From the NCBI GenBank assembly GCA_964432675.1, contig CAYSOG010000004.1:30002-84417 (forward strand): a stretch of 54,416 nucleotides of DNA. Reading direction: 5' to 3'. Every line of letters starts with the position of its first letter. Within the stretch, counting starts at the first letter, position 1. Below the pieces are notes generated by a model. That model saw nothing but the letters and a program-made list of their open reading frames with translations, did no database searches and was not told the DNA's origin. The stretch is from an uncultured Gammaproteobacteria bacterium (GTDB lineage: Bacteria; Patescibacteriota; Microgenomatia; CAYSOG01). Both the position numbers and the translations under genes were made by a program. Below, one piece after another: positions 17,785 to 19,251 of the stretch.

Positions 17785-19251
17785 TTGGTTCAATACCTTT
17801 ACGCTGGCGATATGCCGGAAAATGCAGTAACACACTTACGTCATTTTATTGGCATAACCCCGGAACGGTATAAAATAACACAACCGCGAAAAGCGGAAGG
17901 TATCCTTATCCCTGAAAGCGAAATCAACTGTGCGCAATTCATAGCAGAACTGGGCATGGAAGCACGAGATTTCCATGAGTACGAAACAACTGATGATCCT
18001 CAAGTCCGTTTGCTCACTAGTCCAAAGGTGAAACAACCACCGCCGCGGAAATACGGAGTTTCTTACACCGGAAACTCAAGAAAAACAGCCGATCTTTTAC
18101 AAAAACTCGCGCAAGAATATAAAACAGACATTTATACTATCAGCAGAGCTCGACGCTGCTTTTATCGCCAAGAGTGTAACTGCGACATTGATGATCCGTT
18201 AGAAGAAGATGAAGATGAAGATCTAGTTATTCACTTCAATTGTGCAAGACGAACAGTGCATGGGCTTTACCGATTAGACAGAGTCTACGAGTACGAACTT
18301 ACTGCAGGCGATTCGTTCTCTGACAATGTGAGATGGGCTATCCATGCTTCCGGCGGCACTCCTGTCACTGATACCAATGGTGCAATATTAGCAGAAGTAG
18401 CAGACGGCGAGATTTATCTTTTGTTTAATATTGATTATATCGATGTCGACACGCGATTCCAGTACATCAACTGGACTCACGCGAATGTCGTATTAACCCA
18501 AATTTTGCAACAGGCAATACCAATTGCCCTGAAACAGAAGCAGGAAAACGACGTAACACCAAGATACCTTCGTGATGTCGCTAACCGAACGGCATTATAT
18601 GCCGCGCAAATTGACCAAACTCTTGAAAGATTCGTAAAAATTGACGACCGGCGAAGTGCAAATCGGATAGCCGAATTAGAAGCAGAAATTCGCCGTCTCA
18701 CTGATTACGCCGCTGATTTTGCCAAAGAAGCAATAAAAAAGTCACGACAGGCCGGAGAGCAACAAAGAATGCTTAATGCACTTCGCGATAACCCGGAAGA
18801 CGTAACAGCCAAACGACAACGCGAATTGGCAAATGTTCTGGCAATGCCCGATGTTATTGGGATGGTTGTCGACGAAAACGAGACAATCCACGTGTATACA
18901 GGCCTGATCTATATTACCTATGAAGGCCGTCGATACCGCGTTGGTTCGTTCGATATTCGAGTCAATTTCCCGATTGCTAGTCTAACTATCGTAAACATGA
19001 CCGGCAAGCGTGACGGGAGGCATCATCCGCATGTATTTGAGGATGGCCGTGTTTGCCTTGGCCAAATCCAAGAGTATGTCACGATGATGTTACAGCATGA
19101 ACGGTTTGAGGAACTTATCACCATTATGGTGCAGTTCCTAAAACAGTTTAAGTACGAAGACCGCCGGTATTCGGTAACGGAATGGCCGGTCGCTGAGCCA
19201 GGTGAAGGAGAAGACCAAAATGCCCCAGTGCTTGCTGACGCCAGAGCTTAA
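17785..19251 (+). CDS. E2/UBC-like domain protein with large N-terminal extension (cassette 1)
   Basis: 488 aa, TTG start; C-terminal beta-rich segment then HHPHVFEDGRVCLGQI (His414-Pro-His416, Cys424) resembling the HPN...C flap of UBC folds; central coiled-coil-like 290-350; conserved Cys125/131/133/His150/Cys153 cluster; paralog of 21312-22769. Confidence 0.65.
   Translation: MVQYLYAGDMPENAVTHLRHFIGITPERYKITQPRKAEGILIPESEINCAQFIAELGMEARDFHEYETTDDPQVRLLTSPKVKQPPPRKYGVSYTGNSRKTADLLQKLAQEYKTDIYTISRARRCFYRQECNCDIDDPLEEDEDEDLVIHFNCARRTVHGLYRLDRVYEYELTAGDSFSDNVRWAIHASGGTPVTDTNGAILAEVADGEIYLLFNIDYIDVDTRFQYINWTHANVVLTQILQQAIPIALKQKQENDVTPRYLRDVANRTALYAAQIDQTLERFVKIDDRRSANRIAELEAEIRRLTDYAADFAKEAIKKSRQAGEQQRMLNALRDNPEDVTAKRQRELANVLAMPDVIGMVVDENETIHVYTGLIYITYEGRRYRVGSFDIRVNFPIASLTIVNMTGKRDGRHHPHVFEDGRVCLGQIQEYVTMMLQHERFEELITIMVQFLKQFKYEDRRYSVTEWPVAEPGEGEDQNAPVLADARA

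Follow-up and report, generated by a model that had tools for sequence, protein, structure and literature searches.

A long E2-like protein with an orphan N-terminal domain and a coiled coil in an unnamed family of bacterial ubiquitin-like tagging operons

The window analyzed here is a 54,416-nucleotide stretch of contig CAYSOG010000004.1 from an uncultured bacterium, and the gene under study (positions 17785..19251) encodes a long protein that ends in an E2-like (ubiquitin-conjugating) module. The gene opens a four-gene unit that occurs twice in the window, as cassette 1 and cassette 2. In both units the order is long E2-like gene, JAB/JAMM peptidase, ThiF-type E1, ubiquitin-like protein (Ubl) and terminator, and adjacent genes abut or overlap. 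Operons of this kind, four-gene units for ubiquitin-like tagging in bacteria, make up a large family without a name, and their architecture is new among bacterial ubiquitination-like systems. The eight genes of the two cassettes are as follows.

17785..19251, plus strand: long E2-like gene, cassette 1; 488 amino acids (aa), TTG start, Shine-Dalgarno AAGGA
19202..20005, plus strand: JAB/JAMM peptidase, cassette 1; likely true start ATG 19220, JAMM motif HSHx7SxxD at 19490-19531
20005..20676, plus strand: minimal ThiF-type E1, cassette 1; 223 aa, GxGxxG at 20095-20112, C177 at 20533-20535
20749..21063, plus strand: Ubl, cassette 1; IRGG-stop, likely true start ATG 20797 (strong Shine-Dalgarno), 88 aa
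21312..22769, plus strand: long E2-like gene, cassette 2; 485 aa, Cys loop at 21693-21770, HPH-x7-C at 22548-22580
22738..23475, plus strand: JAB/JAMM peptidase, cassette 2; 245 aa, C-terminus YYSGG-stop
23453..24136, plus strand: minimal ThiF-type E1, cassette 2; 227 aa
24177..24455, plus strand: Ubl, cassette 2; 92 aa, IRGG-stop

An earlier, sequence-only reading of this DNA had picked out the open reading frame (ORF) at 17785..19251 and proposed that its product fuses an E2 module to a Zn-binding, E3-like N-terminal region, as a single-chain E2-E3. The frame is real: its 488 codons follow a good Shine-Dalgarno sequence, and homologs begin alike, with MxxYL(I/Y)PG. The common YLY(A/P)G N-terminus described for the two paralogs is present in both, as MxxYLY(A/P)G. 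Along the protein of cassette 1 we distinguish the following segments.

17785..18024, plus strand: N1 sub-domain (aa 1-80), predicted ferredoxin-like beta-alpha-beta-beta-alpha-beta; AlphaFold2 (AF2) predicted local distance difference test score (pLDDT) 89-96; carries C49 and the near-invariant P34
18067..18558, plus strand: mid domain (aa 95-258), orphan alpha/beta, ending in a long helix (233-257)
18157..18243, plus strand: Cys-rich loop C125-x5-C131-x-C133 ... H150-F-N-C153, a putative structural Zn site and subfamily insertion; AF2 pLDDT 70-76
18370..18423, plus strand: family-wide motif D196-x2-G199-x3-A203-E204 ... Y211-x-L213, counted in 95 sequences
18559..18840, plus strand: heptad, coiled-coil helix (aa 259-352), the least conserved segment between the paralogs (21%)
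18793..19194, plus strand: predicted UBC-fold E2 core (aa 337-470), helix alpha1 included, identified by hhalign and PDB profile
19024..19056, plus strand: HPH-x7-C424 active-site motif (aa 414-424), catalytic Cys codon at 19054-19056

Judged from its sequence, the C-terminal ~135 aa is a genuine canonical UBC-type E2, and the module is probably active. The active-site segment of cassette 1 reads HPHVFEDGRVC, with a spacing identical to that of HPNIDEKGQVC in UBE2L3, and the paralog carries HPH-x7-C at aa 413-423. Across 184 relatives the motif is near-invariant (H414 in 161, P415 in 182, H416 in 181 and C424 in 183), and it is followed by G in 181 and N in 159. An hhalign comparison of 183 family cores with four human E2s gave a probability of 93.6% (E 2.2e-7, 121 columns), in a register that places HPH on HPN and C424 on the catalytic Cys and that covers helix alpha1. 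The result was rechecked independently against PDB sequences, where a 14-sequence family profile matched UBE2L3 (E 0.004-0.006) with the register HPHV..G.pC unchanged. AF2 modeled the core at pLDDT 82-91, and a Foldseek search of the full-length model against the PDB placed E2s at the top (2fo3, E 0.03; UbcH7 6n13_C, probability 0.93), none of them below 1e-3. The E2-like HPH-x7-C module recognized earlier is thus confirmed by hhalign, by the PDB profile and by the near-invariant motif. Its C-terminal placement holds as well, whereas its extent, given as the last ~130 residues, is slightly longer (aa ~337-470) and takes in helix alpha1.

The core shares the element order alpha1, beta-meander, H-P-(N/H), x7, catalytic Cys and two helices with canonical UBC-fold E2s such as UBE2L3/UbcH7 and UBE2D2. 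It differs from them in having His instead of Asn as the third motif residue, in lacking the Trp ~8 residues past the Cys, in its fusion to a ~335-aa N-terminal extension (orphan domain and coiled coil), and in its partnership with a ThiF-size rather than a multidomain E1. None of the Pfam families Prok-E2_A to Prok-E2_E matched the window proteins at E <= 0.1 or 14 family cores at E <= 1, and Pfam UQ_con gave sub-threshold matches to 3 of 14 family members (best 2.9e-5).

Upstream of the E2 core, the N-terminal ~260 aa is, in the models, a folded and conserved orphan domain rather than a linker. Disorder, which the sequence-only reading had named as a possible outcome, is not predicted, as AF2 models aa 1-262 (39-sequence alignment) at pLDDT 88.5 with a predicted template modeling score (pTM) of 0.73. 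The full-length protein was modeled less well (pLDDT 73.8, pTM 0.39), as expected for lobes linked by a single long helix. The best Foldseek matches of the N-terminal model had E 1.4 and probability 0.14 in the PDB, and E 0.11 and probability 0.06 in BFVD; together, structure, profile and member-wise Pfam searches found no relative in PDB, BFVD, Pfam, NCBIfam, PHROGs or PADLOC. It is this combination of a confident model with no structural or profile match that leads us to describe a folded orphan domain.

The most conserved N-terminal features across phyla are the D196 motif and P34, not the Cys cluster. In the 95 sequences compared, the motif positions are occupied by D in 90, G in 74, A in 78, E in 76, Y in 72 and L in 81, and such near-invariance across phyla points to a constant partner or ligand, not to a variable target. 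To follow the mid domain through the family, members were searched with a profile of 11 full-length sequences, followed by one iterated on the core of the domain. The core (aa ~185-258; in many members from aa ~95) was found in 132 of 185 sampled members and in two to three copies in 13 of the 185. Members in which it is missing are mostly short (coil and E2, some of them probably fragments) or have other N-termini.

Several members vary on this layout. Tandem mid-domain copies (two to three) are seen in some members, as noted for P0022 (849 aa) and P0096 (954 aa). P0037 has an apparent extra N-terminal E2-like module without the Cys (DHPYVVEGKV), and members of 730-770 aa (e.g. P0036) carry ~300 additional N-terminal residues with no Pfam match. 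The order of secondary-structure elements had also suggested that the mid domain is a second, inactive E2 of the UEV or RWD type. This identity was rejected at the profile level, as the hhalign probability was <1% whether the comparison was with the family E2 core or with human E2s, and the Foldseek search of the N-terminal model lent it no support.

Within the N-terminal region, C49 and the four-Cys cluster lie exactly where they had been described in both paralogs (Cys at 49, 125, 131, 133 and 153 in cassette 1; at 49, 128, 135, 137 and 153 in cassette 2), and H150-F-N-C153 is common to the two. Whether the Cys and His are invariant has a divided answer. In the subfamily the conservation exceeds chance: C125, C131 and C153 are present in 10 of 11 full-length homologs that are only 23-32% identical, and C49 in 8 of 9. 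The third ligand is Cys in 8 of the 11, usually as CxxC rather than CxC, and is replaced by a nearby His in P0003 and P0004, and all five Cys are missing at once in P0009. The H150 position, by contrast, is variable (H/N/D/F/Y) among the same 11 homologs, and in the wider family the loop itself is absent. Two homologs (P0006 and P0011) retain the four-Cys set while the N1 unit is missing, so C49 lies outside the essential four. In alignment A5, the two-residue insertion that bears C49 occurs only in sequences with the Cys loop, the loop is missing from the other 28 N-terminal regions, and a few of these keep a Cys at position 153; in a 40-sequence set this position is Ser in 21 and Cys in 12.

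Co-conservation, co-loss and Cys/His exchange within an inserted loop form the pattern of a structural Zn site, and the ligands of the 11 full-length homologs behave in just this way, as a Zn(Cys)4 site would at the sequence level. An eight-ligand RING cross-brace is a poor description of them, given 4-5 Cys and no conserved His. The pattern thus suggests that the Cys cluster is a structural Zn site and not a RING-like E3 module. We regard it as very improbable that the cluster is instead a redox switch or an Fe-S site regulating the E2. Five co-varying Cys in a low-confidence loop, limited to one subfamily as a regulatory add-on might be, would fit such a role, but two homologs have His in place of Cys as the third ligand, an exchange typical of Zn sites, and C-x5-7-CxxC ... 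C does not correspond to a known Fe-S motif. Confined as it is to a subfamily, the Cys loop cannot be the general functional heart of the N-domain; by the alignments, it is a subfamily embellishment and not the functional core. In loop-less members (e.g. P0012, P0014 and P0053), the strand-end motifs VSNPHG, IRFWSxP and LFDLPH mostly stand in the place of the cluster, and their His/Ser/Asp/His constellation might constitute another type of metal site, or else a catalytic one.

The N-domain and the E2 core are joined by the Arg/Glu/Ala-rich heptad-like segment noted earlier, which proved to be a real helix. AF2 predicts it as continuous over residues 260-335 with a further stretch at 337-352, rich in Ala, Arg and Glu. 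In the family alignment its hydrophobic periodicity peaks at 3.5-3.6 residues with 3-4-3-4 heptad spacing, a peak that none of 2000 shuffles reached, and the 14-sequence family profile also matched keratin coils among PDB sequences. This ~90-residue heptad helix probably forms a coiled-coil dimer. Matches of single members to Pfam DUF7337 and BRE1 also fall in the coiled coil and were set aside as not meaningful.

Comparison of the two cassettes shows how far each part has diverged. The long E2-like paralogs are 32% identical over their full length (E 2e-78), and the identities between the cassettes are distributed as follows.

N-terminal region, aa 1-258: 34%
Coiled coil: 21%, the lowest segment
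E2 core: 36%
E2-like protein, whole: 32%, the most diverged of the four products
JAB: 41%
Ubl: 48%
E1: 55%

The sequence-only reading had held that the N-terminal regions are the least conserved part of the two proteins, as expected if they set target specificity. The comparison does not bear this out: the coil is lowest at 21%, and the N-terminal region (34%) is about as conserved as the E2 core (36%) and carries the near-invariant D196 motif across phyla. As the coil and not the N-domain is the least conserved segment, the specificity argument is unsupported as it was stated.

These findings bear directly on the proposal that an E3-like module, which binds Zn and acts as a catalyst or adaptor, makes up the N-terminal region and sets the targets through its divergence, making the protein a true single-chain E2-E3. 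Parts of that proposal stand, namely a real E2, a folded N-domain, a coil that links them, a jointly conserved Cys site and an operon without an E3 gene, and the 32% identity of the E2-like proteins is the kind of divergence it calls for. The concept also exists elsewhere: UBE2O and BIRC6 are eukaryotic E2/E3 hybrids whose extra domains (including a coiled coil in UBE2O) bind substrates, with no separate E3. The likeness, a UBC core within a larger polypeptide, is a functional analogy only; the extra domains show no detectable kinship in sequence or structure, and the bacterial protein is far smaller. Other parts do not stand. Most family members lack the Cys cluster and have VSNPHG or FWS in the aligned segments, H150 is variable, and 4-5 ligands fall short of the 8 in a RING cross-brace. 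The Foldseek search that had been proposed as a check found no RING, U-box, HECT or RBR fold although the model is confident, and Foldseek, Pfam and PDB sequence profiles together gave no likeness of the N-domain to these or to a known zinc finger. Finally, the N-domain is conserved like the E2 core and is not divergent, with a key motif that is near-invariant across phyla. On balance, we consider a true single-chain E2-E3 rather unlikely.

The partner genes look active by their conserved residues. The E1 contains one ThiF domain, at aa 27-193 (Pfam ThiF, E 1.8e-19 in cassette 1 and 2.5e-20 in cassette 2), and has no other; C177 is kept in 42 of 42 proteins, and GxGxxG, D55, K78, D115 and R120 are invariant. 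In the JAB, the JAMM residues E36, H97, H99, S107 and D110 are kept in 28 of 28, and its Prok-JAB matches are weak. The Ubls gave weak SAMP2/ThiS-like matches. Both window Ubls terminate exactly at IRGG, so that processing should not be needed for them. Across related loci the GG is conserved, and several Ubls have 2-5 residues beyond it, which would require trimming.

Partners of this kind could also belong to a pathway for a sulfur carrier or a cofactor, as in the ThiS/MoaD-ThiF/MoeB or CysO-Mec systems, with the "E2" as a non-catalytic partner. The best NCBIfam/Pfam matches of the E1 are indeed to ThiF/MoeB (E 1e-17 to 1e-19, below cut-offs), the Ubl matches point the same way, and JAB peptidases serve CysO-type carriers too. 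Yet the E2 Cys and HPH hardly vary across 184 sequences, the neighborhood has no conserved gene for a rhodanese, ThiG, MoaE or cysteine synthase, and every ThiF/MoeB equivalog score is far under its cut-off. For instance, ThiF PRK08644 scored 65 bits (cut-off 159) and PRTRC_ThiF 47 (cut-off 144.75), and there are no ThiG, MoaE or ParB partner genes near the window cassettes, which sets them apart from both ThiF/MoeB and PRTRC systems. Such a pathway is therefore a highly improbable explanation.

The termini of the partner proteins show some further features. Both window Ubls have an Arg/Ala-rich N-terminal extension of ~25-35 residues ahead of the beta-grasp. Docking of this Arg-rich tail on the acidic D196/E204 motif was considered and dropped as a family feature, since Ubls of related loci are without a basic tail. 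The JABs often have Gly-Gly at their C-terminus or close to it: the protein of cassette 2 ends in YYSGG-stop, those of L132/L138 in VGG-stop and that of L002 in SGG-stop (L022-L041 were also considered), Myxococcales JABs have RGG followed by an acidic tail (WPDFDDDLADWR), and the JAB of cassette 1 has DGG 24 residues ahead of its end. A GG terminus was found in 0 of 42 E1 proteins and 0 of 35 E2 proteins. The JAB tail might be self-processed, conjugated or a mimic of the Ubl tail.

The family to which the long E2-like protein belongs is large. An exhaustive HMMER search with the two paralogs as query returned 2622 cluster representatives at E <= 1e-3, of which 993 reached E <= 1e-10 and 17 reached E <= 1e-30; word-indexed searches gave only the query itself, P0010, P0025 and P0088. 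The E2 core is present in 150 of the 150 matches listed (E <= 8e-21), among which full-length alignment was confined to the two paralogs and nine others (P0003-P0011). The source annotation of family members is "hypothetical protein" only, and the family has no entry in Pfam, NCBIfam, PADLOC or PHROGs. Ten diverse members searched against Pfam gave nothing credible, with one sub-threshold match (DUF1068, E 0.0068).

A search of species-representative genomes with the E1 pair yielded 41 strong loci, all in metagenome-assembled genomes (MAGs), from Chloroflexia, Anaerolineae, Nitrospinae, Chitinophagaceae and other Bacteroidota, Ignavibacteria, Methylomirabilota/NC10, Binatia, Myxococcales, Saccharibacteria/Moranbacteria of the candidate phyla radiation (CPR) and Gammaproteobacteria; the family was met almost entirely in uncultured lineages. 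Of two metagenome scans, the first was empty and the second returned only one ortholog already in the set. Hidden Markov model scans found the order long E2, JAB, E1 in most of the 41 loci, with the Ubl behind the E1 or ahead of the E2, as in L008, L010 and L015 (Ubl-E2-JAB-E1). The closest subfamily (L132/L138) and L136 have the four-gene unit of the window, and L135 has this unit with one unannotated ORF between the gene in the JAB position and ThiF. The Methylomirabilota/NC10 loci (L004-L020) consist of E2, E1 and Ubl without a JAB, and their E1 frames are N-terminally longer (284-353 aa stop-to-stop). Across clades, the related loci share no common fifth gene and no conserved separate E3 gene.

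From the domain anatomy, the conserved active-site motifs, the operon and the relative-less N-domain we infer the following working scheme. The minimal, homodimeric ThiF-type E1 would adenylate the C-terminal Gly-Gly of the Ubl and load it onto C177 as a thioester, from which the Ubl would be transthiolated to C424 of the E2. With no E3 gene conserved in the operon, an E3-independent, self-sufficient E2 is a reasonable idea, and the E2 would discharge the Ubl straight onto a target amine. The acidic D-x2-G-x3-AE surface of the N-domain could serve as a built-in binder of a conserved ligand, either the target or the Ubl itself, and in the subfamily a Zn ion in the Cys loop, most likely structural, would clasp the N1 and mid sub-domains. 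The coiled coil would dimerize the E2 to match the dimeric E1, and the JAMM peptidase would trim Ubl precursors and remove conjugates. The acidic motif, the domain repeats and the absence of the domain from some complete operons, taken together, would favor an N-domain that recognizes either the Ubl or some constant ligand from outside, and they would speak against an essential part in E1 docking as well as against a hypervariable module for specificity.

That the protein works as described, as the E2 of a self-contained, E3-less Ubl cascade built from an orphan N-domain (with a Zn clasp in the subfamily), a coil and a UBC core, has in our judgment about an even chance of being right. Several observations weigh against it. 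The Foldseek E-values of the E2 core are weak (0.03-0.1); Pfam UQ_con scores lie below the 27-bit gathering score (15.4 bits, E 0.014, for the full protein and 18.2 for the isolated core); members that consist of coil and E2 only exist (e.g. L001, 252 aa, on a 243-kb contig), which would make the N-domain dispensable for the cascade; and the gene neighborhoods are mixed, with housekeeping genes in the window and L136 and mobile-element genes in Myxococcales and L015.

The same distribution bears on a different role for the N-domain and coil, as an internal scaffold that docks the E2 non-covalently on the mini-E1 dimer, the JAB or the Ubl and so replaces the E2-recruiting domains of larger E1s. 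An E1 that consists of a 223-aa adenylation domain alone, lacking both UFD and CYS domains, would leave room for such a scaffold; E1, JAB and Ubl are the sole proteins that constantly co-occur with the E2, a near-invariant acidic motif suits a constant partner, and a dimeric coil would suit a ThiF-type homodimer. However, the coil and E2-only member of L001 sits in a complete operon, so that the N-domain seems unneeded for E1-E2 pairing, the tandem mid-domain repeats of 13 members look more like avidity for an external ligand, and the Methylomirabilota loci keep the domain without a JAB. We see docking within the cascade as a less probable role, though as a rival it carries considerable weight.

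Bacterial ubiquitination-like systems (Type II CBASS, Bil and Bub) have only lately been shown to conjugate proteins, and they reshape ideas on the origin of eukaryotic ubiquitination. The cassette would work like Bil (BilABCD), which likewise has four genes for Ubl, E2, JAB and E1, no E3, and some Ubls that need C-terminal trimming, and whose gene order Ubl-E2-JAB-E1 recurs in the related loci L008, L010 and L015, but it differs in the tested features of E1 architecture and E2 motif. The Bil E1 is multidomain (an inactive and an active adenylation domain, IAD and AAD, and an inserted Cys domain, CYS), whereas the window E1 is a single ThiF domain of 223-227 aa; the Bil E2 is of the 6d type without the classical His or of the CEHH type, whereas the window E2 has the classical HPH-x7-C and, as a feature of its own, the orphan domain and coil. 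In the published classification, Bil Type I corresponds to Iyer 6d and Type II to CEHH/6C (PMC10557695; PMC1779556), the 6d E2s are without the classical His (PMC1779556), and none of the bacterial operon types 6a-6e listed there (PMC1779556) matches the window cassette.

With Type II CBASS Cap2/Cap3 (Iyer 6b) the cassette has in common an adenylation domain that is ThiF-like and homodimeric, the Cys of the E2, and a peptidase of the JAB type. Cap2 is an E2-E1 fusion with an Atg3/Atg10-like E2 without HPN (10.1101/2022.03.31.486616), whereas E1 and E2 are separate genes in the window, and in CBASS the C-terminus of the CD-NTase, rather than a Ubl, serves as the substrate. Neither the window nor the 41 related loci contained a CD-NTase, there is no CBASS effector gene at the window, and PADLOC gave only weak matches, to CBASS-type E2, JAB and E1-E2 models (the E1 best to Cap2 E1-E2 models, 1e-13 to 1e-9). 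In Bub (6E/DUF6527), E1 and E2 lack the catalytic Cys and use oxyester chemistry with a DUF6527 serine protease (PMC11601596); in the window family both catalytic Cys are invariant, and there is no DUF6527 match. The archaeal Caldiarchaeum E1-E2-RING-Ub operons likewise combine an HPN-type E2 site, a GG-ending Ub-like protein and a JAMM (Rpn11-like) peptidase in one operon, but they include a small E3 of the RING type, and their E1 is larger and eukaryote-like (PMC5654768), whereas the window cassettes lack a RING and pair a minimal E1 with a long E2.

Our literature search found no description of this architecture, although its coverage was incomplete and an earlier description is possible. 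We put forward only tentatively, and with more doubt than confidence, that these operons constitute a distinct, phylum-spanning class apart from 6a-6e, Bil, Bub and CBASS, in which an HPN-type E2 works with a minimal E1 and an E3 is unneeded thanks to the new fold of the N-domain (with a Zn clasp in the subfamily) and the coil. If a distinct class with intrinsic target or Ubl binding were borne out, it would amount to an E2/E3 hybrid in bacteria, and the classical E2 active site might have had a bacterial source. The family combines a classical HPN-type E2 site, missing in CBASS, Bil 6d and Bub E2s, with a bare ThiF-size E1 and a coil-tethered orphan domain. It thereby offers a small, tractable system for studying E2 target choice without an E3 and E2 recruitment by a minimal E1, and a genome that carries two diverged cassettes lends itself naturally to testing orthogonality. 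The biological role may lie in defense, in a mobile-element function or in (housekeeping) regulation.

The signals that flank the two cassettes are the following.

17653..17681, plus strand: promoter-like site upstream of cassette 1, TTGACT-17-TATAAT, 11 of 12 consensus positions, a consensus match only
21088..21127, plus strand: intrinsic terminator behind cassette 1, 13-bp stem and T-run
24476..24519, plus strand: intrinsic terminator behind cassette 2, 14-bp stem, related in sequence to the cassette 1 terminator

Each Ubl gene is thus followed on its 3' side by its own strong hairpin terminator (hairpins at 21088-21117 and 24476-24509), and the two are alike in sequence (GCCCGGTGTTTCT... 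in cassette 1 and GCCCGATGTTTCT... in cassette 2). Two complete units, each with a related terminator, argue for a tandem duplication of the whole transcription unit that took in the terminator. The cassettes are mutual best matches, yet L132 is almost as near (E1 56% against 53%); as they are scarcely nearer to one another than to L132, the duplication is old.

The mobile-element genes mentioned above are prominent in particular lineages. In the Myxococcales locus L022 (region 3448-10772), the genes on either side of the operon encode a TrwB/HerA-like ATPase, a primase of the DnaG type (CHC2 Zn finger and Toprim) and a SprT-like protein, several Myxococcales MAGs have two loci apiece, and in L015 (region 8640-9302) Mu Gam flanks the operon. 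These neighbors, together with the double loci, suggest carriage of the operon by mobile elements in the Myxococcales and L015 lineages. A phage or plasmid origin was considered and rejected, as there was no match in phage DNA and tblastn with two family members found no phage or plasmid match. In addition, this E2 family was found in none of 78 viral contigs with distant ThiF genes, and PHROGs gave no match to the E2.

In the window itself, the flanking genes are ordinary chromosomal ones (mannitol dehydrogenase, GDSL lipase, a uridine-kinase-like protein, a methyltransferase and tRNAs), and a PADLOC scan of the flanking ORFs gave no credible defense matches and thus no defense-island context. 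Five successive ORFs (261, 564, 345, 359/289 and 237 aa) lie at 10456-16343, upstream of the mannitol dehydrogenase gene, with no credible Pfam or PADLOC match and two borderline PADLOC matches (E ~0.001) for the first of them. Between 10 and 25 kb, G+C is slightly higher (0.45-0.50) than in the remaining window (0.38-0.45), which might mark an acquired island holding both cassettes. Farther away, positions 32055-33194 encode a DUF2130 protein (E 3.7e-62) with a weak PADLOC match to Lamassu LmuB (5e-6). A 1266-aa protein at 4251-8051 on the minus strand, with glucose/sorbosone dehydrogenase, PKD and DUF2341 domains, is unrelated to the E2 cassettes and probably secreted or surface-bound.

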